This document shows, piece by piece, positions 14,708 through 37,084 of a stretch of DNA of 64,000 bases. Position numbers and translations under genes: made by a program. Under the pieces are notes generated by a model. That model searched no databases and was not told the DNA's origin. It was given only the letters and a program-made list of their open reading frames with translations. The stretch is from Methanobacteriota archaeon. Its GTDB lineage: Archaea; Thermoplasmatota; Thermoplasmata; SG8-5; JAGLSY01. Each line of letters opens with the position of its first letter. Positions within the stretch are counted from its first letter, which is position 1. Where the stretch lies: assembly GCA_020696385.1 (NCBI GenBank), contig JAEHCQ010000001.1, forward strand, positions 32,001 through 96,000, written 5' to 3'.

Positions 14708-15508
14708 TCATGTTCTTTCATGTCTTGTTTTATTACGCTTGAACTCCCTATCCAGCTTAACGAGATTATCCTTCACCTTTCCAACATTGGTGCCGTCAAG
14801 CAAGTACATGGATGACTTTTTCATGTCGGCCAGTTGATTTCTCATCACCACTCCAAACCAGCTTCTCTTCTCATTGATATAAGTTCCACCACAAAGATCA
14901 TTGAAGGCGGGCATCATGATGTACTTGCCACCTATTTCATCATACCTATCCGCGCACTTCTTCTTATCCCATTCACCACGTAGCCAGCACTTCATCGTGC
15001 CGCGTGTTTCCAGATTGTCAAGAAATAGGGTCGTTGGGTGGTAGTGACCGAATATCACAGTCTCGGAGGCCATGACCTCCTCCAAGGGCCATGCATGGCC
15101 ATGCCATATTCCGATGTCGGCATCATCCAGTTTCATCCCGCTGGATGGGTGCACCTTCACCCCGGATGGCACGAAATGTTCAATATTGCCGTCGTGGTTT
15201 CCCTTTGTTATGTGAAGCTCATCGACATGAGCCAGTATGTCCCGGAAGAACAAGGGAAGCTCCCTCTCTTCCTGGTAGCTGTGGCCTGGAACCTGGTGTT
15301 TCACATCACCAGCCAGTACAAGCCTTTTAACATCATTGTCCTTCAGGAGCTGAAGTATCTTCTTCTTCAGCTCATTTGTGCCACTGGGTATCTCCGCCCC
15401 GGCCTTGAATATCTCATATTCGATACCGATGTGAATGTCGGCAATTATCATGGTCGACAGTTCTTCAATCAAAAGAACTGGTTCGCCATGGATCGGCATG
15501 ATGTCCAT
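14708..15508 (-). CDS. Calcineurin-like metallophosphoesterase (COG1407-like), paralog 1
   Basis: ADIHIG, GDVKH, GNHD, HGH, GHYHP, MPAFN. Confidence 0.85.
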   Translation of the reverse strand: MDIMPIHGEPVLLIEELSTMIIADIHIGIEYEIFKAGAEIPSGTNELKKKILQLLKDNDVKRLVLAGDVKHQVPGHSYQEERELPLFFRDILAHVDELHITKGNHDGNIEHFVPSGVKVHPSSGMKLDDADIGIWHGHAWPLEEVMASETVIFGHYHPTTLFLDNLETRGTMKCWLRGEWDKKKCADRYDEIGGKYIMMPAFNDLCGGTYINEKRSWFGVVMRNQLADMKKSSMYLLDGTNVGKVKDNLVKLDREFKRNKTRHERT

Positions 15509-15582: not shown

Positions 15583-16347
15583 TCAATAGCCCCTGATGTC
15601 ATCATCCTCATCGATATGATCCCCGACCATTCCAAAATCCATTATCTCGCCCTCGCCAGTAGCATATATCCTGGCTTTCGAAACATCCAGCTCCCGCAAT
15701 TCCTCTATCATGAAATTGCGGTTTGGTGCTATGACGTTTGTACCGGATGCCAGCGGACTGAAAGCAGGCATGATAATAAATTTATTTGTTTTGCCATATA
15801 AAAAGCAAGGCATGGTTATTCTGGCTCCGATCTCATCTCTAAGTCTAAGGACTGGATGCTCGTGACCGTATATGGTGATTATACTTTCATCATAGGTAGC
15901 CAATGACTTACTGGAAAGGTGTCCATGAGTTATCTGAAAGTTATCTATACTGTAACTGTCAGCCATCTCCACATCGCGTTTACTGATTATCGTCTTCAGG
16001 AAATTATCATGGTTTCCCCTGACAAATTTGACACTGGCTCCCTTATCATTTATGAAGTCAATTAGCTGGAATACCTCATCCCATTCCTGCCCCAGATTCC
16101 TCGCAAATTCGTGTTTGATATCGCCATTTATGATGACCTGGCTCGGAGAAAAATGATCCATCGCATTACCGAGAGTTTCCAGGATCTGTTTGAACTGGAA
16201 ATCTGGTATGGCCACTCCCTCAGCCCTCATGGATGCCTCATATCCCACATGCAGATCGGAGATCACCATGGTCTCGGATCTGGGGATGAGGATCGTATTG
16301 TACGAACTGAGGATGATACCATTTGGGAGTTTGATCTCAGTTCTCAT
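15583..16347 (-). CDS. Calcineurin-like metallophosphoesterase (COG1407-like), paralog 2
   Basis: SDLHVG, GDIKH, GNHD, THGH, GHEHP, MPAFSP. Start MRTEIK. Confidence 0.85.
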   Translation of the reverse strand: MRTEIKLPNGIILSSYNTILIPRSETMVISDLHVGYEASMRAEGVAIPDFQFKQILETLGNAMDHFSPSQVIINGDIKHEFARNLGQEWDEVFQLIDFINDKGASVKFVRGNHDNFLKTIISKRDVEMADSYSIDNFQITHGHLSSKSLATYDESIITIYGHEHPVLRLRDEIGARITMPCFLYGKTNKFIIMPAFSPLASGTNVIAPNRNFMIEELRELDVSKARIYATGEGEIMDFGMVGDHIDEDDDIRGY

Positions 16348-16441
16348 ATTATCCCATAATGGAACAATGGTAAAAAACCTTAAGTGCATAATTATATATG
16401 TTGGAGCAGCAATAATTGAAATATATCACTGGTGGAACAAG

Positions 16442-18025
16442 ATGGAAGTCGAAGAAAGATTGACCAAGCTGAAGCAGGCTTATGCAAATGGAAAGGTCAG
16501 GAAAGAGATATATGATGAGAACCTGGCCAAGCTGGAAGCAGAGCTTGCACAATTGAAAAAAGCTGAAATCGAAGCTGCTAAAGAAAAGCAGCTTGACATG
16601 GTCGATTGTTCCGTATGTGGTGCACCGAATCTGAAATCCGCAATATTCTGCAATGAATGCGGTATGGAGACAGGTGTGAAGTCAGAAGAATCTATCAAGA
16701 AAGAGGAAGGAATGGATGATCTTCTAGAAGATATCCTTCAAAGCGAGATCATCGAGGATAAGAAGGTGGATGCGAGCCTGGGTCTGGTTTCACAAAGTCC
16801 AGTGGCAGAGGGTGAGGATGAGGATGATCTTCTTCTGGATGATCTATTTGATTCACTTGTTCTGAAAGAGGAAGAGATCGAATGTCCATTATGCGGGACC
16901 AGTCTTCCGATGGGAACCCAGCTATGTCCCAATTGTGATGCCCAGATGACTGAGACTGGAGAATTGGTAGAAGAGATCTCCTTTGAATCACTGGCAGATT
17001 CAATAGAAGATGGATTATCCGAGCTGGAAGACATGGCGGAGGATCTCGCACTGGATGATGAGGTGGGAGAAGAACTTGATGATCTTTCCGATATCATGGG
17101 AAGTGTGGATACGGAGATACCACAAGCTGAAAAGGTTGCAATTGCAGAGCCAGCCCCCGAGCCAGTGACTCCGAAGCCTATGGCAAAAACCAAAAGAGTT
17201 GTGAAGTCAAAATCTGTAGCAAAGACCAAAAGTGCTGCGAAGCCAAAACCTGCTGTTCAAAAATCAGAGCCAACCCCGATAGAAGAGGACATCGATGTCG
17301 TACCAGGTGACATCGATGAAGAAAAGGTTTCCAAACTCCACCTGATAGGAATGCGGGTGATCGATCTGATAGTAATCATAACACTGATTGGCTTAATCGG
17401 TGTCTTCCTGGGATTCAAATTATATTATATCGAGAATTTCAATTCAATGAGTACTGGACTCTTCTTCGGAGTGGCACTTGGAGGAATGCTGGCAACATTT
17501 ATCTTATTCAGAATGAACACCTCGGCAGTTGCGGAAGGTGACCGGCTTTTCAAGGCTGGCAAATACGAGGAGGCTCTGGGATATTATGAGAGGGCCTGCA
17601 AACTGAGCAATAAGCCAGCCACTGCCTGGACAAGCAAAGGTGTCACACTCAAAAGATTAGGCGACCATGGTGGTGCACTTAGGAGCCACAATATCGCCAT
17701 AAAGCTCAACCCGAAAAATGAGATCGCCTGGAGCAATAAAGGAGATCTTCTGTTCAGGCTGAACAAGCATGATGAAGCACTTGAATGCTATGAGAATGCC
17801 CTTGATCTCAATTCAAGATATGCGATCGCCTGGAACAATAAAGGGACCACATTGGCAAGGATGGGGCGCTATGAAGAGGCTAAGGTATGCCAGGACATGG
17901 CAACACGCCTCAGGCCAAGGTATGCCGCGGCTTGGGTTAATAAGGGAGAGATATTGGCCAATCTCGGAAGGCGAGATGAGGCAATAGTCTGCTACAAGAG
18001 AGCGAAGAAGCTCATAGCAGCTTGA
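16442..18025 (+). CDS. Membrane protein: SHOCT-like N-terminus, two zinc ribbons, acidic linker, 2 TM helices, about 5 TPR repeats
   Basis: MEVEERLTKLKQAYANGKVRKEIYDENL; CSVC-x10-CNEC and CPLC-x10-CPNC; two TM segments; AWxxKG TPR repeats. The track's start (16190) overlaps the neighbouring gene, so 16442 is preferred. Confidence 0.8.
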   Translation: MEVEERLTKLKQAYANGKVRKEIYDENLAKLEAELAQLKKAEIEAAKEKQLDMVDCSVCGAPNLKSAIFCNECGMETGVKSEESIKKEEGMDDLLEDILQSEIIEDKKVDASLGLVSQSPVAEGEDEDDLLLDDLFDSLVLKEEEIECPLCGTSLPMGTQLCPNCDAQMTETGELVEEISFESLADSIEDGLSELEDMAEDLALDDEVGEELDDLSDIMGSVDTEIPQAEKVAIAEPAPEPVTPKPMAKTKRVVKSKSVAKTKSAAKPKPAVQKSEPTPIEEDIDVVPGDIDEEKVSKLHLIGMRVIDLIVIITLIGLIGVFLGFKLYYIENFNSMSTGLFFGVALGGMLATFILFRMNTSAVAEGDRLFKAGKYEEALGYYERACKLSNKPATAWTSKGVTLKRLGDHGGALRSHNIAIKLNPKNEIAWSNKGDLLFRLNKHDEALECYENALDLNSRYAIAWNNKGTTLARMGRYEEAKVCQDMATRLRPRYAAAWVNKGEILANLGRRDEAIVCYKRAKKLIAA

Positions 18026-18160
18026 ACACATCATCCTATGCCGGAAATTCCATAATGTCAGATTCTAAAATATTCCGGTTTATTCAATTGACAATTGCAC
18101 AAAACACATGCTGTTTGTAACTGGCCAGCATGAGAATCGAATATGAATAAAAACCCATTG

Positions 18161-18176
18161 GGAAGGTTTTTAAACA
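18161..18176 (+). promoter_or_regulatory. Putative BRE/TATA promoter of the KaiC-like/GTPase operon
   Basis: GGAAGG followed by TTTTTAAA, about 22 nt before ATG 18196. Confidence 0.45.
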
Positions 18177-18195
18177 TAAATGAGCATATGGGGGA

Positions 18196-18918
18196 ATGGT
18201 AGTCATGGTGGAAAGATTTAGAACATATATTGAAGGATTCGATGACAAGCTCGGAGGTGGGGTTCCAGATGAAAGCATCATCCTACTGGTCGGTGAGCCA
18301 GGGACCATGAAGTCCTCTGTTGCCTTCAATATGCTTTTCAATAATGCCAAGCAGGGTGGCTTGAATTCAGTCTACCTCACCCTGGAACAGAATACTGGCA
18401 GCCTGTCCAGACATATGAGAAGTATGGGCATGGACCCAGACCAGGTCTCGGATCATCTGGAGATCGTGGACATTGGCATTATAAGACAGCAACTGACGGA
18501 TATCAAGAAAGATACCTGGATCCAGGTTCTCAAGATGTACATTAAGAACCTGAAAGAAAAACTAGATTATGATGTTCTGGTGATAGATTCCTTACCAGTA
18601 CTGGATGTTCTGGCAAAGTTCGAGGATCCGAGAGAGGAGCTATTTCACTTCTTCGAATGGCTAAGAGGTCTGGGAATAACGACATTATTGATATCGGAAA
18701 TGGATCCAGATTCCAGATCATATGCTAAATACGATGAGGACTTCCTTGCAGATGGCATCATCTACCTGAGGATGGTGGAAAGCGGCGGAGTCAGCGTCCA
18801 GAGACAGATCAGATGTGTGAAGATGCGTGCGACCAACCACAATACGGATTTCTACACATTGATGTTCGATGGCGGCAAGTTCAAGATTACCAGAGTGATA
18901 GGAGATTCAAAGAAGTAG
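18196..18918 (+). CDS. Single-domain KaiC/RecA-superfamily ATPase (COG0467-like)
   Basis: TYIEGFDDKLGGGVP, variant Walker A GEPGTMKS, YLTLEQ, VLVIDSL, LLISE, ADGII, VKMR. Confidence 0.9.
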   Translation: MVVMVERFRTYIEGFDDKLGGGVPDESIILLVGEPGTMKSSVAFNMLFNNAKQGGLNSVYLTLEQNTGSLSRHMRSMGMDPDQVSDHLEIVDIGIIRQQLTDIKKDTWIQVLKMYIKNLKEKLDYDVLVIDSLPVLDVLAKFEDPREELFHFFEWLRGLGITTLLISEMDPDSRSYAKYDEDFLADGIIYLRMVESGGVSVQRQIRCVKMRATNHNTDFYTLMFDGGKFKITRVIGDSKK

Positions 18919-18928
18919 GGGATATAGT

Positions 18929-19465
18929 ATGACAGATAGAAAATACAAAACAAAGATATGCCTTGTAGGCGAAAGCGGTGTTGGCAAGACCAGCCTGATC
19001 AAGAAATATGTATTGGATATCTTTGATGACAAGTACATCACCACTATCGGGACCAAGGTTTCGAAAAAATCCCAGACCATTGATGTAGAAAATGAAAAAG
19101 TGGATATTGACATGATGATATGGGATATCATGGGCCAGTCAAGCTTCAGAGTTCTTCTTCAGGATGCTTATTTCTATGGAGCCCATGGAATAATCGCAAT
19201 ATGTGATGCAACAAGGCCAGAGACACTTCAAGACATTCATTCCTGGATAGACTCGACAAAGGAGGTCATCGGCGATGTTCCCATCGTTTTCCTTGCAAAC
19301 AAGAGTGACCTTGGTGATGAAGTGAAGATCACCAAGGAAATGATGGATAAGGAGCTGGAAAGATACAATATGCCAGCGATGATGTCAAGTGCCAAATCTG
19401 GCGAGAATGTGGAGAATGCCTTTAATACTCTTGGAAAGATGATCATCACCAATATATCGGATTGA
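18929..19465 (+). CDS. Rab/Ras-like small GTPase 1
   Basis: G1 GESGVGKT, G2 YITTIG, G3 WDIMGQ, G4 NKSD, G5 SAK. Confidence 0.92.
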   Translation: MTDRKYKTKICLVGESGVGKTSLIKKYVLDIFDDKYITTIGTKVSKKSQTIDVENEKVDIDMMIWDIMGQSSFRVLLQDAYFYGAHGIIAICDATRPETLQDIHSWIDSTKEVIGDVPIVFLANKSDLGDEVKITKEMMDKELERYNMPAMMSSAKSGENVENAFNTLGKMIITNISD

Positions 19466-19487
19466 TACACAGGTCGGGAGAGATGGG

Positions 19488-20300
19488 ATGCAAAAGAAAA
19501 TAATAAAAAAGATATGCCTCCTTGGCGATAACTCGGTTGGCAAGACCAGTCTGATCAAGAAATTTGTTTTCGACACCTTTGATGACAAGTACATTGCGAC
19601 CATCGGGACCAAGACAGTGAAGAAAGAAATGGAAGTGGATTATTTCGGAAAGCCATTGAACCTGACACTGATGATATGGGATATCATCGGGCAGAAGGAA
19701 TATCGCAATCTTCAGAACATGAGCTTCGAGGGAACCAGTGGCGCACTGGTCGTTTGTGATATGACACGACCAGAGACATTGAAAAGCCTGGAAGAATACT
19801 GGATAAGTGCATTGAAGGATATTGCAGGCAATGTCCCTATCGTCTTTCTGGCGAATAAATGCGATCTCGTGGACGAGGCAAAGGTTACCAGAGAAGAACT
19901 CATGGAAACATCAAAGCGCCATTCGGCCAATTTCTTCATGACCAGTGCCAAGACAGGAGAGAATGTTGAGACGGCTTTCAAGCTTCTCGGCAAGAAGGTC
20001 GTGGCCGGGAAAACTGATGGAGCAGTGGATGTAAAGGCCAAGGAAAACAAGATGAGCCCTGTGGAGGTGATGGACAATATAGTCGCCCACTTCTGCAAGA
20101 ATTCCAAGCAGGAAACTGATTATGCCATGTCCATAATCAGAAAACAATGCCAGGTTATTGGCCTGAATATAAACAACCCCACAAAGCAGTCCATGTTACA
20201 GCTGATTGAAAAGCTGGCAACAGTGGAGACCGATTTCTTATCCACATTCGAGGTCAATAAGAACAGGATCGAGAGAAAGGGTTTTGTTGCCAAGATGTGA
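19488..20300 (+). CDS. Rab/Ras-like small GTPase 2 with a ~90-aa helical C-terminal domain
   Basis: G1 GDNSVGKT, G2 YIATIG, G3 WDIIGQ, G4 NKCD, G5 SAK, plus an extra C-terminal domain. Confidence 0.92.
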   Translation: MQKKIIKKICLLGDNSVGKTSLIKKFVFDTFDDKYIATIGTKTVKKEMEVDYFGKPLNLTLMIWDIIGQKEYRNLQNMSFEGTSGALVVCDMTRPETLKSLEEYWISALKDIAGNVPIVFLANKCDLVDEAKVTREELMETSKRHSANFFMTSAKTGENVETAFKLLGKKVVAGKTDGAVDVKAKENKMSPVEVMDNIVAHFCKNSKQETDYAMSIIRKQCQVIGLNINNPTKQSMLQLIEKLATVETDFLSTFEVNKNRIERKGFVAKM

Positions 20301-20358
20301 GATCCCACTTTTTTCTTTTATTCAAGCCCCAACCTGCTCGCTCGGGCATTATGTATAT

Positions 20359-20949
20359 CTATGCTCGACCGTGGCTTTCACCCTTCACAAAAGCCGCTCC
20401 GATAAGGTGAGCCAGCCTTATCGCCTCAGGAAGCGCACCCCTCAATGTCGCATTGGCCAGCAATTCTTTAAGATCATCATATTCAATACCAGCGAAGCTT
20501 ACATAAACAGGTTTATTTTCCGTGTCAAATTCATGAATTTCCGAGGCTTTCATAAGCTTCAATCTGTACTCCCAATCATCAAAATGAGAACGCAATGCCT
20601 TCTCGATCTCGGAAAAGTCTGGCTTGTAGCGTGTTATCGTCGCAACCGCGATGCCAGTATCTGAATGGATACGCTTGATATCAACAACATTGAAGCCTCC
20701 AAGAGCTGCACCATCAATGACTATGAGTTTGAGCTGGCGCTTGTATCTGGAACGATTGACCATGCGTATCACCGCATCGGTGGAATCTAGACCATCGATG
20801 GTGATATCCGACATCATCACACCCTCGACATACCCTGGACAGCGAACGACCACACCCACCGCCTTTGTCTTGTCCTCGCCAAAGGTGAAGGATGCATCGT
20901 CAATGCCCAGAATCCTAACCTGGCTTTTTTGGGTCTTTCGGCCTTCCAT
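20359..20949 (-). CDS. DUF99 / UPF0215 endonuclease V-like protein
   Basis: RILGIDD, IDGLDSTD, DGAALGGFNVVD, PEAIRLAHLI. Start MEGRK. Confidence 0.85.
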   Translation of the reverse strand: MEGRKTQKSQVRILGIDDASFTFGEDKTKAVGVVVRCPGYVEGVMMSDITIDGLDSTDAVIRMVNRSRYKRQLKLIVIDGAALGGFNVVDIKRIHSDTGIAVATITRYKPDFSEIEKALRSHFDDWEYRLKLMKASEIHEFDTENKPVYVSFAGIEYDDLKELLANATLRGALPEAIRLAHLIGAAFVKGESHGRA

Positions 20950-21079
20950 GAATAGCCATATGATGTCCAATGAAATAAAAATATCGAATTGAAAATATGA
21001 TCGAAAAGAAGGGGAAGATATGTGAGCCATTGAAAGGCTCACATCCTCATGGTCTTGATTTCTACCATATGACGCAGAT

Positions 21080-26498: not shown

Positions 26499-29400
26499 TT
26501 AAGGCTTACTGTACTTTTCTTTTAGCATCTGATAAGTTTCTTCAGATACATGTCCCTCTGCATGTCTCAGCTCCAGTTTATCCAGCATTTCTTGGTTCTC
26601 GGGAGAGATTGGAGGTGGTGGAGCTACATAGTCAGATGGTGGAGGGGGAGGCGAAGGAGCTATACCTGATGGTGGAGGAGACTGCTGTTGTGGTGCCTGA
26701 GGCGGTTGCTGAACTTGAGCAATGGGTGGAGCAGGTTGAGCATGGATCCTCACAGGCTCTTTATCTTTCTTTCTCCTGGATGCCATTATCAAGATCAAAG
26801 CAAGCACTATGACAATTATGAGTAGCAGGATCAACCATGTCCAATCAAAACCACCATCATCTCCTTCGGCCAAGACCTCGATTATGACAGAATCAGTATC
26901 CCAATTACCTTCAATATCCGAGGCATTCAAGGAGACGATATAGGTTCCCTCATCCATGAATGTGAAGGTGGGGTTCTCACCATATAATTTGATCTCTTCG
27001 TCATCATAAGTGAAGGTCCAGGTATAATTGGATATGTCAAGGTCACCGGATGAGCCAGAACCGTCGAATTGGAAGATTGTTCCACATATGCAGTCTTTAT
27101 TACTCCCTGCATCTGCTTCTATGCTTGAAGGATCAGCATCTTCACCTTCTACCTTGATAGTTAATCTATCCGTAGCAGAATTGCCAGAGGAATCTATGAT
27201 ATTCAAGGTAATAAGATATGAACCTGGCAGCAAGAATTCGTATGAGAAAGAAGAACCGGCAAACACACGCTCCTGGCCATCATAGGTGAAGTTCCAGGAA
27301 TATGTCGATATGCCTATATTATCCATAGAGCCATTAGAGCTGAAATACAATAAGGGAACGGACTTGTCATCCACCAAGGCATGTACCTCGGGAATATCAT
27401 TGTCTATAACATCCAGAGATATCTGGGCAGTACTATTCCAATTGCCCAGAACATCACAGACTGAGATATAATAGATGAATTCCAGCGCATTGTCCGGCAT
27501 GGAAAGTTCGAGATTGTAATTGCTCAATCCAAATATGGACATTGTGTCATTATGCCAGCTTCCCAATCCAGTGGTCAGTTCATATCTGAAATTCAAATAG
27601 ACATCATCGATCCCGATGAGATCCTGCACGACACAGGTAGCTGTGAGATCATCACCTGTGGAAGGAGAGCCGGATGTAAGATCCAGTATCTCGGGCAATA
27701 GCTTGTAGCAGCCTTCGACATCAGCTACGGTTGAAACGGATTCGTACAGCAATGTGGTCGCATTGCCAGAGCGAGAATAGAATTGGTAATAGCCTTCGCC
27801 ATCAGCTGCATCGAAGTTCATTGAGAATGGGTAGGTCGTATCATTCGAGTATATCGACCATGCTCCCCATGTTGAATCATCTGAAGAGAAACTGTACCAG
27901 AACTCGACATATTCAGACCCAACGGCAGTAGCAGAAAGAGTCAGTGGAATGCTCATCCAATAATATTCTGATAGTGGTAGCATATCGGAAACTGGCTCGA
28001 TGACACCAAGGGCCACGACCTCGTCAGCATTGCCCAGATTGACCTCGACTTGATCCAATTTATCTGTCGCGATAGTGTAGAATTGATAAAATCCAGCATT
28101 TGTATAACTGAAGTTCCAGAAATATGGGGAGATAGTGGCATTCCCATAGGAACTCCAGGCACTCCAAGATAGATTATTGAGCGAGGAGCGATAGAATAAT
28201 TCCACCTGCTTTATGCCTACACCAGTATCGTTCGCTGTGGCATTTATGACCAGAGGATCATCGAAATTCCAGTATGGATTGATCACGTCTACTTGACTTG
28301 AAGGAAGTGTGATATCATAACCAACTGATGTATCCGACACTCCGGGAGCGACCTCATATGCACCAGAGGTCACATTTCCAGCCCTTGAGTAGAACTCGTA
28401 ATAGCCTTCACCATCGGGGAAAGTGAAGCTAGAGGTCCAGCTTGCATCAGAAGTGTCATTGGAATATTGAGACCAGGCACTCCATGTTGAATTATCAGAG
28501 GCGAAATGATACCAGAATTCCACGTATTCAGAACCAAATGCGGTTGCTGTTAATGCAAGTGGGCTTGTATTATGCCAGTAAGGAATAATTGAATCAGCCC
28601 ATGATACTGGCGATATTATATCATACATCGCCAGAGCATCTGCAGCTGCGGGCGCGACCTCATATACACCAGAGGTCACATTTCCAGCCCTCGAATAGAA
28701 CTCGTAATAGCCTTCACCGCCAGGGAAGGTGAAACTGGAGGTCCAGCTTGCATCAGAAGTGTCATTGGAGTATTGTGACCAGGCACCCCATGTTGAATTA
28801 TCAGAGGCAAAACGATACCAGAATTCAACATATTCCGCATCTGATGAGGTTGCTGTCAGTGGAAGTGGACCTGTATTATGCAGATATGGAGATACCGCAT
28901 CGATAGATGAGGCAATTGAAGTACCGTCGGTCCAGTTCACATTCCAATCATGGAGCTCGGGGCTGGCACTTCCATTTCCTGAAATGATCCCATGCAATCG
29001 TATAGATGGATACGCTGTAGAGTCCAGTCCAGAAATATCAATATTCGTGCCTGCCATATTTACAAAGCCAGATATGGGATCTCCAGTCACAACATCAAGT
29101 ATTGTGACTGTGATATTGTTCTCCGCACTAGGTTCGGATTTGGATATATCGAGGCTGTCCCATATCTTTCCAGCAGGCAGAGATATGGATTCTGAGGTGA
29201 TATTGCCTTTGGCAAAGTATGAAAGGGGCATTGTGGCCCAGTGTATCCGATATTGACCAGCTGTATTTCCAGCATACCACATCTTTGCATACCCATCCGT
29301 ATCAATAATTACAGATGGGTTGGTCACTGCTGTATCATCGGTGCCAGAAGAACTTTGTGGCAGGCTGAGACCATGCTTGGTCCAGTTATCACCATCAGAG

Positions 29401-32063
29401 GAAGTTGCATACAATATCTCTGCACCATTGGCACTGCTGGAGCCAGTGTAGAACATGTAATACAGGTCATCGATCTCAATTATATTTGGACATGCGGCTG
29501 AATTCTCATCACGGTCCCCAGGAGATCCTATATCGACAATCACGCCTATTTTTGTCCAGGCGATTCCATCAGGTGAAGTTGCCAGGTGAATCCTGAATAT
29601 ATTGGATGTATCAGAACCTCCATAGAACATTCTATATTCGCCATTGGACTTGAGCACGGACTTAAAGGCCGTGTGCTTATCATCAGTACCTCCTGGCAAT
29701 CCACCAAGAGGTATAACAACACCATATTTTGTCCAGGTGATACCATCGGTAGAAGTTGCATAATGGATCTTCCATTCAGTACCATCATGCCCATCATACC
29801 ACATCTTATAGATTGAATCTTCTTTGATGACATATGGATACCCAGTATGTCTATCATCTGAACTGCCAGAGCTGCCCAATGGCACAACAGATCCAAGCTT
29901 AGTCCATGCTATACCATCGGTAGAAGTTGCATAACATACACGATAGGTCATTGACAGATCAACACCAGTATACCACATTTTATAAATGCCATCATCCTTG
30001 ATCACATAAACCCCCAGGTTCATATGTCTGTCATCTCCAACTGCACTCAGATCAAAAGCTAAATTCTGCTTATCCCATGTATCAAACTCAATATGGAATG
30101 GTGTTTTGGCATAATGGATCCTGTAAGCACTGCCATCATGGCCCGTGTACCACATCTTGATATAGCCATCTGAGTCTAGTAGGACTCTGGGAGCTATGAG
30201 CCGATCATCATCTGAATCTCCGGGAGCCCCTGGCACTACTGCTTGCCCTTGCTTTGTCCATGTCAAACCATCAGAAGAGCTTGCATAAAGGACATAACTC
30301 ACACCGAATGAAGGAGCTCCTCTGTACCACATATGGTATTCACCATTTAGCTTGAGAACAGACGGTTCGCCTGAGATCAGCATGTCGTATGTTCCACCAT
30401 TGGGAACTGCGATTCCTTGTTTTGTCCATGACAGACCATCAGCAGATGTCGCATAGATAACGTCCCCACTTGTCGAGCTGGAGAGACCGAAATACCACAT
30501 TTTATAGATCCCATCTTCTTTGATTATCGATGGAGAACTTAATCCAAAATCATCATACGAGCCACCAGTTCCCAGATTCAGACCTGTGGCAACACCTTGC
30601 TTACTCCATGTCATTCCATCTGCAGAAGTAGCATAATGCATCCTGTAATTACTACCATCATGTCCGCCATACCACATTTTGTAGGTCGCGCCTTCTTTCA
30701 TCACAAAGGGACTGGATATATGGGCATCATCTGTTGCCCCAGAGGTCCCAATGTCTAGTACAAGGCCCTGCTTGTTCCAGGTCACCCCATCAGAGGAGTC
30801 TGCATAAAGTACACGATTATTACTGCCGTCATAGCCAGTATACCACATCTTGTATGTGGATCCATCCTTAATTATTCCAGGGGCAGTTGTCCAAGTAGAA
30901 TCCTGTGAATAAGTACCTATGTCAACTGCAACACCCTGCTTGTCCCAACTCATGGGCTCGAATGATCTGGGGTTCATGGTGGCTAGGAGCAATCTATACT
31001 TGTTAACAGGAGCCCAGTTAGTTCCACTGTACCAATGCTTTAAGGAGCCATCAGAATCTATAATGACATGTGATTGAGATACACTCTGATCTTCTCCAAC
31101 CACATCCCCATAGTTTATGTCGAGACCTTTCTTATCCCAGTTGATACCATCTATTGATGTTGCATATAGGATGGTGAGGCGAGAGCCCGTATCTCTACCA
31201 CTGTACCACATGTTATATATGCCCCCCAGCCTGATGACACTTGGAAAGTATACTCCTGTTGCTTCATAGGATGATGACCCATAGTCTATGACACGCCCCT
31301 GCTTGACCCAGGTAATTCCATCTGTAGAAGTAGCATGGAATATTCTCAAACCAGATCCATCATAGCCAGTATACCACATTTTGTAAGTGCCGCCTTCTAT
31401 TAACACAGTGGGTGATGAAACAAATACATCCTCCTGCGAGCCCCCTATATCAAGAGCTATACCCTGTTTGGCCCAGGTGATCCCATCAGGCGAAGTGGCA
31501 TATAGTATCCTATAATTACTACCATCACCACCAGCATACCACATCTTGTAAATGCCGCTGTCCTTCAGAACATATGACATTCTAATATCGTTGCTGTCAT
31601 ATACTCCGCCTGGACTCAAGACAACACCTTGCTTGTTCCAATTCTCCCCATCAGTAGAGGTGGCATATATTATTTTGAAGGTTACACCTCCATCATTACT
31701 CCCACTATACCACATCTTGTAAATTCCATTATCAGTGATCACACATGAGTACATGGCATGGTCACTATCACTAGCTGTGTCAGTATCCACAACAATACCC
31801 TGCTTAACCCAATCTTTCCAGTATATGGAAGTGTTCAATGATACATCATGATCGATTCTGACATCATTGTATTCAGAGACACGAGTAATATTCTCAAAAG
31901 TATCATTCCACCCATCACCAGCTGCATAGACCACCGCTGGTACATCCTCGGCCATTGCCGAGCCCATTGGTACGATCAAAGATGATAGCATTATGCTCAA
32001 TGCCATAAGAAAACAAACTTGCTTTTTTATTATGCTCATATGCCCACTTCCACCACATATCAC
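26499..32063 (-). CDS. Large surface protein: three five-bladed propellers, Ig-like repeats, 2 PKD domains, TM, Pro-rich linker, SHOCT-like tail
   Basis: About 15 propeller-blade repeats; four ~100-aa VEFWY...YYEFYSRA-type modules; PKD domains; TM; PPPPP; tail RHAEGHVSEETYQMLKEKY. Confidence 0.8.
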   Translation of the reverse strand: MICGGSGHMSIIKKQVCFLMALSIMLSSLIVPMGSAMAEDVPAVVYAAGDGWNDTFENITRVSEYNDVRIDHDVSLNTSIYWKDWVKQGIVVDTDTASDSDHAMYSCVITDNGIYKMWYSGSNDGGVTFKIIYATSTDGENWNKQGVVLSPGGVYDSNDIRMSYVLKDSGIYKMWYAGGDGSNYRILYATSPDGITWAKQGIALDIGGSQEDVFVSSPTVLIEGGTYKMWYTGYDGSGLRIFHATSTDGITWVKQGRVIDYGSSSYEATGVYFPSVIRLGGIYNMWYSGRDTGSRLTILYATSIDGINWDKKGLDINYGDVVGEDQSVSQSHVIIDSDGSLKHWYSGTNWAPVNKYRLLLATMNPRSFEPMSWDKQGVAVDIGTYSQDSTWTTAPGIIKDGSTYKMWYTGYDGSNNRVLYADSSDGVTWNKQGLVLDIGTSGATDDAHISSPFVMKEGATYKMWYGGHDGSNYRMHYATSADGMTWSKQGVATGLNLGTGGSYDDFGLSSPSIIKEDGIYKMWYFGLSSSTSGDVIYATSADGLSWTKQGIAVPNGGTYDMLISGEPSVLKLNGEYHMWYRGAPSFGVSYVLYASSSDGLTWTKQGQAVVPGAPGDSDDDRLIAPRVLLDSDGYIKMWYTGHDGSAYRIHYAKTPFHIEFDTWDKQNLAFDLSAVGDDRHMNLGVYVIKDDGIYKMWYTGVDLSMTYRVCYATSTDGIAWTKLGSVVPLGSSGSSDDRHTGYPYVIKEDSIYKMWYDGHDGTEWKIHYATSTDGITWTKYGVVIPLGGLPGGTDDKHTAFKSVLKSNGEYRMFYGGSDTSNIFRIHLATSPDGIAWTKIGVIVDIGSPGDRDENSAACPNIIEIDDLYYMFYTGSSSANGAEILYATSSDGDNWTKHGLSLPQSSSGTDDTAVTNPSVIIDTDGYAKMWYAGNTAGQYRIHWATMPLSYFAKGNITSESISLPAGKIWDSLDISKSEPSAENNITVTILDVVTGDPISGFVNMAGTNIDISGLDSTAYPSIRLHGIISGNGSASPELHDWNVNWTDGTSIASSIDAVSPYLHNTGPLPLTATSSDAEYVEFWYRFASDNSTWGAWSQYSNDTSDASWTSSFTFPGGEGYYEFYSRAGNVTSGVYEVAPAAADALAMYDIISPVSWADSIIPYWHNTSPLALTATAFGSEYVEFWYHFASDNSTWSAWSQYSNDTSDASWTSSFTFPDGEGYYEFYSRAGNVTSGAYEVAPGVSDTSVGYDITLPSSQVDVINPYWNFDDPLVINATANDTGVGIKQVELFYRSSLNNLSWSAWSSYGNATISPYFWNFSYTNAGFYQFYTIATDKLDQVEVNLGNADEVVALGVIEPVSDMLPLSEYYWMSIPLTLSATAVGSEYVEFWYSFSSDDSTWGAWSIYSNDTTYPFSMNFDAADGEGYYQFYSRSGNATTLLYESVSTVADVEGCYKLLPEILDLTSGSPSTGDDLTATCVVQDLIGIDDVYLNFRYELTTGLGSWHNDTMSIFGLSNYNLELSMPDNALEFIYYISVCDVLGNWNSTAQISLDVIDNDIPEVHALVDDKSVPLLYFSSNGSMDNIGISTYSWNFTYDGQERVFAGSSFSYEFLLPGSYLITLNIIDSSGNSATDRLTIKVEGEDADPSSIEADAGSNKDCICGTIFQFDGSGSSGDLDISNYTWTFTYDDEEIKLYGENPTFTFMDEGTYIVSLNASDIEGNWDTDSVIIEVLAEGDDGGFDWTWLILLLIIVIVLALILIMASRRKKDKEPVRIHAQPAPPIAQVQQPPQAPQQQSPPPSGIAPSPPPPPSDYVAPPPPISPENQEMLDKLELRHAEGHVSEETYQMLKEKYSKP

Positions 32064-32123: not shown

Positions 32124-32155
32124 TGAAATATCAGACTTATTAGTCTGATATTTCA
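32124..32155 (-). terminator. 14-bp perfect hairpin overlapping the stop codon of the 1643-aa gene
   Basis: TGAAATATCAGACT-TATT-AGTCTGATATTTCA. Confidence 0.5.
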
Positions 32156-35100
32156 CATTTTCTTCTTCATTTCTCTTATGTATTCTTCTTCCGTTATCTC
32201 TCCTGATATCAGCTTTCTGTCCAATTCGCTCATACCATCAGTATCCCCGGTACCCTTCTTTTTCTTAATCTCCGAAGTGACCACAGTGCCTGTTAATAGC
32301 ACTATCACCACAAGGCCGATCAAGAACAAGCCAACAAATGATGGAGCATAGTTTTTCTGAGATTTGGAGTTCTCCATCTGCTCTGTTTCCAGGTCGTATA
32401 GCCCTTCATCACCATTTTCCTTAAGGATCAATAGGTCTACGCCTGGAGGTGTTGTGATAGCAAGAGAAGGCAGGAGGTTTGTATCATCCTCCAGTTCCCC
32501 TCCTTCAATGGCTATCACGGTTATCATGGGCGTGGGCCCGACTAGCAATCCTTCCCCGTCGATCGCATCATTGCCGGTAACCCAAGCCCCATCATTGAGA
32601 GAATATATGCCGGGGGATGTGAATTCCTGTTTCCCGGCTGGGTTTGGTTTTGTGGATATGATCAGGTCAAGAGTTTGAACCTCTCCTGCCACCATGGTCC
32701 CGATGTTCCATGTCAAATGTGTTGAGCCAGCTCTTCCGACTCCATTCTGCCCATGGATGAAGGAACCGTTCGATGCTGAATAATTCACCAGCTCAAGCTC
32801 AGCTGGAAGAACATCATGAACTACCACAACCAATACATCTGAATCGCCCTCATTGGCGACTGTTATGCGCAATACCCATCCGTATTTCGTATGGGTGTAA
32901 ACGACATCAGGGCCAGATGTCTTAACCTTGTCAATTGTCAGAACTCCGCCAATTGGTTCTATCGGCGGCTCCTCTGGCTCGAATACCGTTATCTGGCATT
33001 CGTCAGAGGCTACATGGCCATCATTATCAATTACTGTAAGAATTACGGTGAAATTGCCAGCCGTGGTATATCTATAGGATGGCATCAGACCATTGATTAT
33101 TGATCCATCTCCAAAGTCCCAGGAATAGGAAATTATTGTTCCATCTGGGTCATAGCTGCCAGAGGCATCGAACTGAACATCAGTGTTAAGGCAAACCATC
33201 TGATCGAGTCCTGCGTCTGCAACTGGTGGTAGATTAGGTAGAATAAATGGATTAATAGTCATTTGACCACTAGCCTGATTATTTGTGAGGTCTATATCAC
33301 CAGGAACGACATCAGAGGCAACTACTATCACAGAATGATCGCCAAGCTGATCTGCAAGCCAACTTGTAGATACTGTTGTAGCTCCATCAGCAGGAACAAA
33401 GATGCCATACTGCCTGTCGATAAGAGTTGCTTCTGAAACTGTATCAAGATAGAAAGATACAGTAGAATTTGCATCCTGACCGACCTTTGCAGCTGGTTTC
33501 TCGGCATAGAAAAGACGATTATGGCTACCATCGTAGCCAGTATACCAGGTCTTCATGGTATCACCCTCTATTGACACCTGACCAAATCCTATCGCACTGG
33601 TCTCCAAAGGCAGGGAGCCTTCAAGGACTATGCCAGTCCGGGTCCAGGAAATACCGTCTGGTGAAGAGGCATGTAATATCCTGCAGGGACCCGGGTATGC
33701 AGCGTAGCCTGTGTAATACATATCATATCCAGTGGCTGTTGGTATGATCCAAGGGAATGAAGCTGCTGGATAATCATATTGCCCATCATTGTTCAGAACG
33801 ACACCGTCCTTTATCCAGGGATCAGATAATTGAGCTTTGTGAGCGTGGCATATCCTGCCTTCGTTCGGAGAGCCCCAATCAGTCCCCCCATACCACATAT
33901 GCCATTCAGTCCCATCATAGAGAACAAAAGGAACGGTTACACCATCAGGATCCGCGGGAGTTCCATAGTCCATATCCATACCTAATTTCTGCCATGTTAT
34001 ACCGCTATCATAGGATATGGCCTTGTGAATATATCCACGGTAGCCGCCATTGGAGCCTATGCCAGTGTACCACATATGATAGATGCCACTGTCGTCCACC
34101 ATTACATATGGATGAAGGACACCGTACTCTTCATACGCATTGCCAAAATCAAGAGCCATTCCCTGCCTCTGCCAGCTTATTCCATCCTGGCTTGTGGCGC
34201 GGAATATTCTATATCTATATGTCAGGCTATCGTCCCCATCTCCATTGTACCACATGACATAACTTCCATCATCCAACTTCAGGACACATGGCTTTCCAAC
34301 ATGAAGATCCTCACCAGCTCCACCAAGATCGAGGATCACACCACTCTTATTCCAGGAACTGCTTTGACTCTGATCTCCAAGAATATCAACATCGATGGTG
34401 ATAATATCATTTTCAATGGCTTGATTATTTGATAAGGCCAATGAGTCCAATGAGATATCCACACCCACCAAAGGTGTGGTAATAGCATCAACACTTATCT
34501 GGACAACTGCCATATCATTGGAATTGTCCATATCAGATGGGGCGGAGTTGGTTATATCTGCTATAATGTCATAGTCTCCAGGGACAGCTGTCCAGTCAAA
34601 TGATATGATAGTATTGGAATCTGCTGGAACAAAGACATTTGTCTGCCTGTATATCAAATTTGAAGCAGATATTGTATCTAAATATAGAGATACAGTACAA
34701 TTTGCATCCTGGCCAACATTTCCAGCTGGTTTCTCTGCATAGAAAAGGCGTTGATGACTTCCATCATAGCCTGAATACCAACACTTCATGGTATCACCCT
34801 CAATCGACATCTGACCAAGTCCTATCATATTGGCCTCCAAAGGCAGGGAGCCTTCAAGGACTATGCCAGTCTTTACCCAGGTAAGACCATCTGATGAGGT
34901 CGCATGCAATATTCTAGAGGGGCCAGTGTATGGTATGGAACCAGTGTAGTACATCTCATAACCCGTATTTGTTGGTATGATACTGGGTGATACTGCGGAT
35001 GGGTAATCATATGGCCCATCATTGTTCAGAACGACACCGTCCTTTATCCAGGCATCAGATAACTGTGCCTTGTGAGCATGGCATATTCTTCCCTCATTCG

Positions 35101-37084
35101 GAGAGCCCCAATCGATTCCATCATACCACATATGCCATTCTGTTCCATCATAATGAACATAAGGGGATCTAACACCATCTGGGTCTGCAGCGGTTCCATA
35201 ATTTAGCTCCATACCCAATTTCTGCCATGTTATGCCGTTATCATAGGATATGGCTTTGTGGATATATCCACGGTAGCCACCATTGGAGCCTATGCCAGTG
35301 TACCACATATGATAAATTCCATTATCATCTATAATGACATTAGGAGTAAGAACACCGTATTCTTCATACGCATTTCCATAATCAAGAACCATTCCCTGTT
35401 TCTGCCATACTATACCATCTGGGCTTGTGGCTCTGAATATTCTATGCCTGTACACCAGATTGTCATCTCCATCTCCATTGTACCACATGACATAACTGCC
35501 ATCATCCAGCTTCAGGACACATGGACTTGTTATATGAAGATCCTCGCCAGTTCCACCAATGTCAATTACAACACCACTCCGAACCCAGGAACTGTTTTGG
35601 CTCTGGTCTCCAAGAATGTCAACATCGATGGTTATGATATCATTTTCAATGGCTTGATTACTTGATAAGGCCAGTGAATTCAATGAAATATCCACACCCG
35701 CAGAAGGTATGGAAATAGCAGCAGCAGATATCTGGACAATTGCCATGTCATTGGTATTATCCATATCAGGTGGGGCGGAGTTGGTTATCTCTGCTATAAT
35801 ATCATAGTCTCCAGGGATAGCTGTCCAGTCAAATGATATGATAGTATTGGAATCTGCTGGAACAAAGACATTTGTCTGCCTGTATATCAAATTTGCAGCA
35901 GATATTGAGTCTAAATATAGAGATACAGTACAATTTGCATCCTGGCCGACCTTTGCAGCTGGTTTCTCTGCATAGAAAATACGATGATTGTTACCATCTG
36001 ATCCGGCATACCAACATTTCAAGATATCACCATCCATCAATACATGACCACTACCCACCTCATCACCCTCTAGAGGCATGGTACCCTCAATAGCTATGCC
36101 GGTCTTGACCCAGGCAATACCGTCGGGTGAGGTCGCATGCAATATTCTGGCAGTTGCAATAGAAGGCATGTAACCAGTGTAATACATCTCATACCCTCCA
36201 TTTATTGGTATGATCCGGGAATTTGAGGCGACTGGATAATCGTATGGTCCATCATTGTTCAGAACGACACCGTCCTTTATCCAGGCATCAGATAACTGTG
36301 CCTTGTGAGCATGACATAATCGAGCCTCATTTGGAGAGCCCCAGGAAATACCAGTATACCACATATGCCATTGGGATCCATCATAATGAACGAAAGGAGC
36401 AGTAGCGCCGTCGGGGTCTGCGGCAGTTCCATAGCCGACATCCACTCCCAATTTTTGCCATGTTATACCATCATCATAAGATATCGCCTTGTGAATATAT
36501 GCTCGATAGCCTCCATTGTAGCCTATTCCAGTGTACCACATATGATAGATATTGTTATCATCCACCATAACATTGGGAAAGTAAACGCCATTCTGCTCAT
36601 AAGCATTACCATAATCAAGAGCCAATCCTTGTTTCTGCCATGTCATACCATCCGAGCTTGTAGCTCTGAATATTCTGTAATTGTATACCGAACTGTTAGT
36701 TCCAAACCCTGCGTACCACATTGCATAGCTACCATCATCCATCTTCAGAACACTTGGATTTATTACATAAAGATCCTCATAAGCCCCGTCTACATCGAGT
36801 ACAACTCCACTCTTGTTCCAGGAACTGTTTTGGCTCTGGTCTCCAAGAATATCAACATCAATGGTTATAATATCATTTTCAATGGCTTGATTACTTGATA
36901 AGGCCAGTGAATTCAATGAAATATCCACATCGGAAGATAGTGGAGCATCCTGAATTGAAGATGAGGCTGTTATAATAGGTATAGAGATATCATCATTATG
37001 AACAGGATCTACCAATACCACAAATGATACTGTGAACATCAGGCATGCGATAGCAAGGGTCATTAGGGTATTTTTACGGTTCAT
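32153..37084 (-). CDS. Large surface protein: three CARDB-with-inserted-propeller modules, PKD, DUF11-like domain, TM, SHOCT-like tail
   Basis: Signal peptide; three ~410-aa repeats; PKD (FDASGSYDPDG...WDFGDG); DVLPAEL DUF11-like domain; TM; tail LDRKLISGEITEEEYIREMKK; GGAG RBS. Confidence 0.8.
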   Translation of the reverse strand: MNRKNTLMTLAIACLMFTVSFVVLVDPVHNDDISIPIITASSSIQDAPLSSDVDISLNSLALSSNQAIENDIITIDVDILGDQSQNSSWNKSGVVLDVDGAYEDLYVINPSVLKMDDGSYAMWYAGFGTNSSVYNYRIFRATSSDGMTWQKQGLALDYGNAYEQNGVYFPNVMVDDNNIYHMWYTGIGYNGGYRAYIHKAISYDDGITWQKLGVDVGYGTAADPDGATAPFVHYDGSQWHMWYTGISWGSPNEARLCHAHKAQLSDAWIKDGVVLNNDGPYDYPVASNSRIIPINGGYEMYYTGYMPSIATARILHATSPDGIAWVKTGIAIEGTMPLEGDEVGSGHVLMDGDILKCWYAGSDGNNHRIFYAEKPAAKVGQDANCTVSLYLDSISAANLIYRQTNVFVPADSNTIISFDWTAIPGDYDIIAEITNSAPPDMDNTNDMAIVQISAAAISIPSAGVDISLNSLALSSNQAIENDIITIDVDILGDQSQNSSWVRSGVVIDIGGTGEDLHITSPCVLKLDDGSYVMWYNGDGDDNLVYRHRIFRATSPDGIVWQKQGMVLDYGNAYEEYGVLTPNVIIDDNGIYHMWYTGIGSNGGYRGYIHKAISYDNGITWQKLGMELNYGTAADPDGVRSPYVHYDGTEWHMWYDGIDWGSPNEGRICHAHKAQLSDAWIKDGVVLNNDGPYDYPSAVSPSIIPTNTGYEMYYTGSIPYTGPSRILHATSSDGLTWVKTGIVLEGSLPLEANMIGLGQMSIEGDTMKCWYSGYDGSHQRLFYAEKPAGNVGQDANCTVSLYLDTISASNLIYRQTNVFVPADSNTIISFDWTAVPGDYDIIADITNSAPSDMDNSNDMAVVQISVDAITTPLVGVDISLDSLALSNNQAIENDIITIDVDILGDQSQSSSWNKSGVILDLGGAGEDLHVGKPCVLKLDDGSYVMWYNGDGDDSLTYRYRIFRATSQDGISWQRQGMALDFGNAYEEYGVLHPYVMVDDSGIYHMWYTGIGSNGGYRGYIHKAISYDSGITWQKLGMDMDYGTPADPDGVTVPFVLYDGTEWHMWYGGTDWGSPNEGRICHAHKAQLSDPWIKDGVVLNNDGQYDYPAASFPWIIPTATGYDMYYTGYAAYPGPCRILHASSPDGISWTRTGIVLEGSLPLETSAIGFGQVSIEGDTMKTWYTGYDGSHNRLFYAEKPAAKVGQDANSTVSFYLDTVSEATLIDRQYGIFVPADGATTVSTSWLADQLGDHSVIVVASDVVPGDIDLTNNQASGQMTINPFILPNLPPVADAGLDQMVCLNTDVQFDASGSYDPDGTIISYSWDFGDGSIINGLMPSYRYTTAGNFTVILTVIDNDGHVASDECQITVFEPEEPPIEPIGGVLTIDKVKTSGPDVVYTHTKYGWVLRITVANEGDSDVLVVVVHDVLPAELELVNYSASNGSFIHGQNGVGRAGSTHLTWNIGTMVAGEVQTLDLIISTKPNPAGKQEFTSPGIYSLNDGAWVTGNDAIDGEGLLVGPTPMITVIAIEGGELEDDTNLLPSLAITTPPGVDLLILKENGDEGLYDLETEQMENSKSQKNYAPSFVGLFLIGLVVIVLLTGTVVTSEIKKKKGTGDTDGMSELDRKLISGEITEEEYIREMKKKM

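Follow-up and report, generated by a model that had tools for sequence, protein, structure and literature searches.

Archaeal Ras- and Rab-like GTPases are central to the debate on the origin of eukaryotic membrane signalling, and we know of no partners for them. Could an archaeon encode such GTPases side by side with their partners? The question is raised by positions 16442-20300 of the archaeal DNA analysed here, a stretch of 64,000 nucleotides (nt) that we refer to as the window. Four genes lie there in a row on the + strand, according to the list of open reading frames (ORFs) and Pfam: a membrane protein with tetratricopeptide repeats (TPRs), a KaiC-like protein, and two small GTPases, which we call G1 and G2. 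A first reading made from the DNA letters (the sequence-only reading) had taken all four for a candidate eukaryote-like signalling module in an apparently non-Asgard archaeon. We consider it probable, though well short of certain, that the unit is smaller: KaiC-G1-G2 (18196-20300) would be a conserved, operon-like cassette of one order of sediment Thermoplasmata, and its P-loop protein, from the KaiC superfamily, would serve a Rab-like GTPase as dedicated partner, a function suggested by gene context.

The host is indeed non-Asgard. It is an uncultured sediment archaeon of the class Thermoplasmata, represented by a metagenome-assembled genome (MAG) of 2.28 Mb that is 94% complete, and its order is that of ‘Ca. 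Proteinoplasmatales archaeon SG8-5’. In a taxonomy check, the close G2 homologs came from MAGs named Thermoplasmata archaeon, Methanobacteriota archaeon and ‘Candidatus Proteinoplasmatales archaeon SG8-5’. The locus has the following features (aa, amino acids; TM, transmembrane).

16442..18025, + strand: protein of 527 aa with two zinc ribbons, an acidic linker, a 2-TM hairpin and five TPRs (Pfam, hydropathy, CxxC pairs)
18167..18174, + strand: TATA-like TTTTTAAA, putative KaiC-G1-G2 promoter (read from the sequence)
18196..18918, + strand: single-domain KaiC-like RecA-superfamily putative ATPase, 240 aa (Pfam KaiC, PDB profile matches)
18929..19465, + strand: G1, short Rab-like small GTPase, 178 aa, of the orthologous clade ‘A-short’ (Pfam Ras, PDB match, tree)
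19488..20300, + strand: G2, long Rab-like small GTPase, 270 aa (Pfam Ras, AlphaFold2 (AF2) models)
20309..20322, + strand: T-rich tract TTTTTTCTTTTATT, putative archaeal oligo-T terminator (read from the sequence)
20359-21042, - strand: Endo_dU gene, convergent with G2 (Pfam Endo_dU, 4.3e-56)

As had been claimed, the four genes are co-oriented and the last three are tightly spaced, with 10 nt between KaiC and G1 (18919-18928) and 22 nt between G1 and G2 (19466-19487). The TPR gene and KaiC are separated by 170 nt. Within that gap, the TATA-like TTTTTAAA lies 22-31 nt 5' of both candidate KaiC start codons (18196, 18205), and at the far end of the locus the T-rich tract begins 9 nt past the G2 stop. 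Because a TATA-like box precedes KaiC, a T-rich tract follows G2 and the next gene is convergent, we infer that KaiC, G1 and G2 form a three-gene transcription unit, with the TPR gene probably transcribed separately. Two start codons call for comment. KaiC perhaps begins at the ATG at 18205 and not at 18196, as its orthologs open with M[AV]ERF; for the first ORF, the longest frame runs from 16190, and orthologs favour the ATG at 16442.

To follow this arrangement beyond the host, we compared the neighbourhoods of G2 and KaiC orthologs in 22 genomes of the order, including the host's own. A KaiC ortholog adjoins a short Ras-family GTPase in 18 of them, and the full KaiC-G1-G2 order is present in 14; where ORFs were tabulated, gaps between cassette genes are mostly 0-24 nt. 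The host's family (f1, the host and four others) has the order TPR-KaiC-G1-G2, the cassette of one member (G001) being split by a contig end. Family f2 has KaiC-G1-G2, with an extra GTPase between KaiC and G1 in G008. Family f4 has KaiC-G1-G2 in G007, G011, G012, G015, G016, G017, G018 and G019, and KaiC-G1 alone in G010 and G013. The genes upstream of the cassette are MCM, DUF424 and NMD3 in f4 and the TPR gene in f1; since the flanks vary between families, the cassette appears to be kept on its own. KaiC orthologs of at least 62% identity are confined to families f1-f4 among the 151 genomes of the class that were searched. The unit that is conserved consists of KaiC and a short GTPase, after which G2 usually comes. 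Of the operon conservation that the sequence-only reading called for, the KaiC-GTPase linkage holds across families with differing flanks, and the TPR gene, adjacent in f1 only, drops out. One f4 locus (G017; L034, contig C98) shows a KaiC ortholog with one TAG, in which the only ORF, of 137 aa, spans the C-terminal half; it is a pseudogene or an assembly error.

We next asked what kind of GTPases the cassette encodes. G1 and G2 match Pfam Ras (PF00071) at 7e-34 (117 bits) and 1.5e-38 (132 bits), respectively, against a cut-off of 21.6 bits, and score higher with Ras than with Roc, and with Roc than with Arf. G1 carries GESGVGKT, YITTIG, WDIMGQ, NKSD and SAK; G2 carries GDNSVGKT, YIATIG, WDIIGQ, NKCD and SAK. 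Both therefore have the hallmarks of the Ras superfamily, namely the P-loop GxxxxGK[ST], the switch-I Thr, DxxG(Q), NKxD and SAK. Across alignments of 76 G2-family sequences and 15 G1 orthologs, none of the GTPase motifs varies, and nor does the catalytic Gln (alignment A1 holds 75 of the 120 listed matches, near-duplicates having been thinned). Rab family proper is defined by further features. The RabF1 consensus is IGVDF; at this position the two proteins read TIGTKV and TIGTKT, and the other RabF motifs are matched only in part, for example by YFYGA in G1. Their C-termini (...IITNISD in G1, ...GFVAKM in G2) lack the terminal Cys needed for prenylation. The sequence-only reading had described just this combination of complete G1-G5 motifs and catalytic Gln with neither IGVDF nor a C-terminal Cys.

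Similarity searches place both proteins near Rabs all the same. The best 60 PDB sequence matches of each are all Rab-family (Rab, Ypt, Sec4 and one Thorarchaeota Rab), led by Rab8A for G1 (2e-28) and by the Thorarchaeota Rab 7ezb for G2 (2.8e-27), and the best 50 structural neighbours that Foldseek returned for the G2 model are all Rabs. By similarity, then, G1 and G2 are Rab-like, as had been proposed, and their closest solved relatives are Rabs. Given the missing terminal Cys and RabF1 motif, the term applies in the sense of Surkont and Pereira-Leal (2016). Roc-COR GTPases were considered and set aside, given the lower Roc scores, the lack of any COR match and a G2 tail without a Pfam match.

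That tail distinguishes G2 from G1. Its GTPase domain (residues 1-174) is joined by a linker (175-187) to a predicted four-helix C-terminal domain (191-269; nt 20043-20297), and the AF2 models have a predicted local distance difference test (pLDDT) score of 84.4 over the full length and 95.8 over this domain. Where Rabs carry a hypervariable tail, G2 would thus carry a folded helical domain. The domain had no Pfam match, no usable Atlas match and zero Foldseek matches in the PDB at E<=0.001. A profile of it found only 208 representatives among 1.84 billion proteins; among the representatives listed, it is mostly C-terminal, in proteins of ~265-300 aa or in shorter, probably truncated ones. When nine atypical matches were compared with Pfam, four had a Ras domain and five had no match. 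On these profile matches, the four-helix domain appears almost confined to the GTPase clade of G2.

In a tree of 85 GTPases, from which a locus duplicating the host's own (L072) and identical sequences were omitted, the cassette positions form separate clades, with Shimodaira-Hasegawa-like approximate likelihood ratio test (SH-aLRT) support of 99 for A-short, 98 for A-long, 87-95 for B-long and 88 for B-short. The extra GTPase of G008 (L044:2715-3263, between KaiC and G1) is of a third type, ‘X’, and has an ortholog in the host genome (G000:C33:166608-167243; SH-aLRT 100). The family is large: the host genome has 10 Ras-family genes, and of 41 related genomes, 38 contain matches to a G2 query. 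The most in any one genome is 41, in G023 (same class, 3.7 Mb), a far larger GTPase expansion than in the host, with several of the matches standing in tandem on contig C35. Elsewhere in the host genome, two closely related GTPases of ~300 aa stand in tandem (G000:C49:34179-36003), preceded by a 432-aa protein without a Pfam match, and form one long-branched clade with a GTPase on contig C46.

The first gene of the cassette encodes a protein that matches Pfam KaiC (PF06745; 1.6e-41, 142.6 bits) and, in PDB profile searches, KaiC (3.4e-38) and PH0186 (7.3e-30). Its Walker A motif reads GEPGTMKS, with Met at the usual Gly position, and so departs from the canonical GxxxxGK[ST]; TLEQ and the Walker B motif VLVIDS are intact, leaving a RecA-like KaiC domain with Walker B and catalytic Glu. 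All 12 full-length KaiC orthologs have G[EQ]PGT[ML]KS as Walker A and retain the Lys-Ser, TLEQ and Walker B. The host genome encodes 17 KaiC-like ORFs, and the Met is present in nine of them, alongside paralogs with canonical GTGKT, so that it is a subfamily trait rather than a sign of inactivation specific to the cassette. The protein is not the circadian KaiC of the KaiABC clock, being a single domain of 240 aa against a double domain of ~500 aa, and scoring 53.7 bits with NCBIfam circ_KaiC against a cut-off of 546. A co-folding run that paired KaiC (alignment A2) and G1 (alignment A4), made without controls, scored 0.00 and counts neither way.

What, then, of the TPR protein, with which the sequence-only reading had completed the circuit? 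From N- to C-terminus it comprises a coiled region, two zinc ribbons, a long acidic stretch, a Lys/Pro-rich stretch, two hydrophobic segments and about five TPRs. Pfam identifies TPR_1 (8.7e-34) and a DZR/zinc ribbon, the CxxC pairs lie at 56/70 and 148/162, and hydropathy places the hydrophobic segments at 296-331 and 336-358, a few residues apart. With such a hairpin, the TPRs and the zinc ribbons would both lie on one side of the membrane, and with lipidation sites absent from both GTPases, the 2-TM protein might recruit them to the membrane, under regulation by KaiC, in a Rab-like membrane-identity system. The order TPR-KaiC-G1(-G2) in all five f1 genomes fits this proposal. So does a paralog outside the window but on its contig (G000:C11:717280-718650, - strand; L158), a 456-aa helix-hairpin-helix (HhH)-TPR-KaiC fusion whose Met-bearing Walker A, GRAGSMKS, belongs to the same P-loop subfamily; a fusion of this kind makes cooperation between TPR proteins and KaiC plausible. 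The host also has TPR genes that are followed, ~1 kb downstream and in the same orientation, by another KaiC paralog; an ORF on the opposite strand intervenes.

The neighbourhoods argue against this four-gene circuit. Outside f1 the TPR gene is not adjacent to the cassette: homologs of its non-TPR N-terminal part occur in f2, f3 and f14 on contigs other than those of the cassette, and this part as a query found no homolog in any of 13 f4 genomes. The protein therefore falls outside the conserved core. Within f1, the 170-nt gap with its TATA-like box divides the TPR gene from KaiC, so that the four-gene unit is not borne out. A candidate second link, the adjacency of a 429-aa TPR protein and the type-‘X’ GTPase on G000:C33, was dropped, being kept in only 3 of 20 loci, and none of the findings points to internal membranes or a trafficking component. 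We think the four-gene circuit unlikely, and regard the TPR protein as, at best, a lineage-specific accessory of the cassette at the level of the family.

A second link between Rab-like GTPases and the KaiC superfamily comes from outside the window. At G000:C44:30759-33085 (- strand) the host encodes a long GTPase, a short GTPase and then a protein of 319 aa that combines a V4R domain with DUF835. The N-terminal 140 residues of this protein match the V4R domains of PoxR (4.4e-4) and MJ1460 (1e-3), and four Cys are invariant in the V4R-DUF835 alignment (alignment A3, 15 of 18 initial rows retained). DUF835 is given as an inactivated KaiC-like domain (‘iKaiC’) in a table of Galperin (2018), which cites Makarova et al. 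(2017), and V4R is described by Podar et al. (2008) and Tran et al. (2024) as the prokaryotic relative of Bet3/TRAPPC3. Among 30 V4R-DUF835 loci of the class (L072-L101), 27 have a short GTPase immediately adjacent; of the other three, one keeps part of a GTPase where its contig ends, one is itself cut off by a contig end and one has none. In all 24 full-length loci from other classes (L109-L132) a small GTPase lies alongside, and a further V4R gene that stands alone is often present. Over the whole phylum, 52 of 54 V4R-DUF835 loci adjoin a small GTPase: 28 of the 30 in the class, counting the partial one, and all 24 in other classes. The pairing of a Rab-like GTPase with a KaiC-superfamily protein is therefore phylum-wide, and KaiC-G1-G2 is its variant at the level of the order, with a full KaiC domain standing in for V4R-iKaiC.

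These two linkages suggest how the cassette might work. Its core pair would be KaiC and the short GTPase G1 as switch, with G2 a specialised paralog, usually next in order; its four-helix tail most likely offers a surface for adaptor contacts or for output. The KaiC-type protein may form oligomers on which the GTPase docks, depending on the bound nucleotide, and may regulate its GTP/GDP cycle or act as its effector; physical contact between the two, the direction of regulation and the cellular output are all put forward here on the strength of gene context. By descent, the cassette would be an order-specific offshoot of the pairing, found throughout the phylum, between a short Rab-like GTPase and V4R-DUF835, a sensor joined to an inactivated KaiC. 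A small-GTPase switch would thereby be tied to the KaiC-based signalling network proposed for archaea.

Several observations weigh against this reading of KaiC as a dedicated partner. With Met in its Walker A, KaiC is only a putative ATPase. Between KaiC and V4R-DUF835, BLASTP gave no match and hhalign a non-significant probability of 0.16, so the kinship of KaiC and DUF835 rests on the literature. In family f3, the KaiC ortholog of G009 is on a different contig from the G1-G2 pair, and in G006 the neighbours of the two KaiC orthologs are two paralogous short GTPases, not the G1-G2 orthologs, which lie elsewhere. No cassette was seen in three genomes that are 59-85% complete (G014, G020 and G021, the last two without specific examination). 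Finally, all cassette genomes are related MAGs of one order, so that the shared synteny is partly inheritance, and counts across them are not independent.

The confinement to one order and the exceptions in G009 and G006 would also fit conserved synteny without functional coupling, in which common descent keeps the genes side by side within a young clade whose GTPase and KaiC paralogs have expanded. With 10 Ras-family and 17 KaiC-like genes in the genome, chance adjacency is likelier than usual. Yet the adjacency outlasts a complete change of flanks and identity as low as ~54-65%, the cassette genes are co-oriented with tiny gaps, and loss of G2 leaves KaiC-G1 intact. In addition, the independent, paralogous pairing of GTPase and iKaiC is kept in those 52 of 54 loci across the phylum. 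We regard mere neighbourhood by descent as decidedly unlikely.

An NTPase-based antiviral or conflict function was considered for the same genes, since some conflict systems do contain small GTPases and KaiC-like ATPases. One paper reportedly mentions KaiC-like proteins in the Asgard defensome. A search of PADLOC-DB v2 returned only weak matches at the level of the P-loop (E 1e-4 to 8e-4), and none for KaiC, the TPR protein or V4R-DUF835; on this result the defence system was rejected. An effector domain is absent, and no mobile-element genes are nearby. The genes around the locus are housekeeping ones by Pfam (two metallophosphoesterases, Endo_dU, a radical SAM protein and a tRNA intron endonuclease), and the inheritance looks vertical, with stable orthologous clades. 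A conflict system is very improbable here.

How does a KaiC-GTPase cassette compare with known systems? KaiC-like ATPases, with DUF835/MEDS ‘iKaiC’ domains among them, were reportedly put forward as archaeal signalling hubs by Makarova, Galperin and Koonin in 2017. The present proteins resemble such hubs, with a single-domain KaiC, 17 paralogs, and ties to V4R, TPR and HhH sensor or adaptor domains; if the link to GTPases is true, it would supply the hub hypothesis with a concrete output or input. The accessible text of Galperin (2018) yielded no KaiC-GTPase link. On the GTPase side, G1 and G2 share with the archaeal Rab-like GTPases of Surkont and Pereira-Leal (2016), and with the Thorarchaeota Rab 7ezb, a Ras fold, G1-G5, the catalytic Gln and the lack of prenylation cysteines. 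That study, as far as its accessible text goes, describes single Rab-like GTPases in a Thermoplasmatales archaeon and in Aciduliprofundum, notes that all archaeal Rab-like proteins are without prenylation cysteines, and yielded nothing on gene neighbourhood, operon or KaiC context. In contrast to those single copies, the host, of a non-Asgard lineage, has ~10, arranged in part as short/long tandem pairs; one form bears the four-helix C-terminal domain, and the genes are operonic with KaiC-superfamily genes. The scale of the GTPase set in one non-Asgard genome is new relative to Surkont and Pereira-Leal (2016). If the link holds, multi-paralog Rab-like systems would extend beyond Asgard archaea.

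The cassette also resembles MglA/MglB and Rup, in which, according to Wuichet and Søgaard-Andersen (2014), a prokaryotic single-domain GTPase gene stands beside its cognate non-GTPase partner. Unlike in MglA/MglB, the partner here is KaiC or iKaiC, not Roadblock/MglB, and the GTPases retain the Ras-type DxxGQ. An MglA/MglB module was rejected for the host, since Roadblock (PF03259) has two matches in the genome (C11:18492 and C11:371359), neither adjoining any of the 10 GTPase genes. The accessible text of that paper yielded no KaiC link. More broadly, a literature search that took in accessible text of Wuichet and Søgaard-Andersen (2014), Surkont and Pereira-Leal (2016), Podar et al. (2008), Tran et al. 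(2024) and Galperin (2018) found no description of a linkage between KaiC and small GTPases; Makarova et al. (2017) and the papers' supplements lay outside this search and may already list the neighbourhood.

The V4R-DUF835 cassette invites a bolder comparison. Like TRAPP, the Bet3/TRAPPC3-containing exchange factor of eukaryotes, with Rab1/Ypt1, and like Asgard TRAPPC3/V4R proteins (Podar et al. 2008; Tran et al. 2024), it pairs a Rab-like GTPase with a V4R protein. Unlike in TRAPP, the V4R domain forms a fusion with an inactivated KaiC, longin-type subunits did not turn up, and the pairing is operonic and outside Asgard archaea, the exchange role being putative. Across the Thermoplasmatota, Rab-like GTPases might then have dedicated KaiC-superfamily partners, either an active-looking KaiC or a V4R (Bet3/TRAPPC3-like)-iKaiC fusion, the V4R partner acting as a ligand-gated exchange factor or effector, in a non-Asgard, operon-encoded analogue, and possibly a relative, of TRAPP-Rab. 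We hold this wider reading to be speculative and doubtful. If true, it would provide the first tractable cognate GTPase-regulator pairs in archaea. In the cultured Asgard archaeon MK-D1, according to Tran et al. (2024), candidate regulators and GTPase genes as a rule do not share operons, so that activating proteins (GAPs) and exchange factors (GEFs) are hard to assign to individual GTPases. The conserved, tight pairs KaiC-G1(-G2) and short GTPase/V4R-iKaiC name candidate partners suited to in vitro assay.

The remainder of the window yielded a few further observations. Scans of its 64,000 nt for tRNAs and Rfam families gave zero matches. Divergent from the TPR gene, two paralogous calcineurin-like metallophosphoesterase genes stand in tandem on the - strand (14708-15508 and 15583-16389). 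Three giant ORFs, all on the - strand, lie at 50619-63854 (4411 aa), 26499-32063 (1854 aa) and 32153-37084 (1643 aa).

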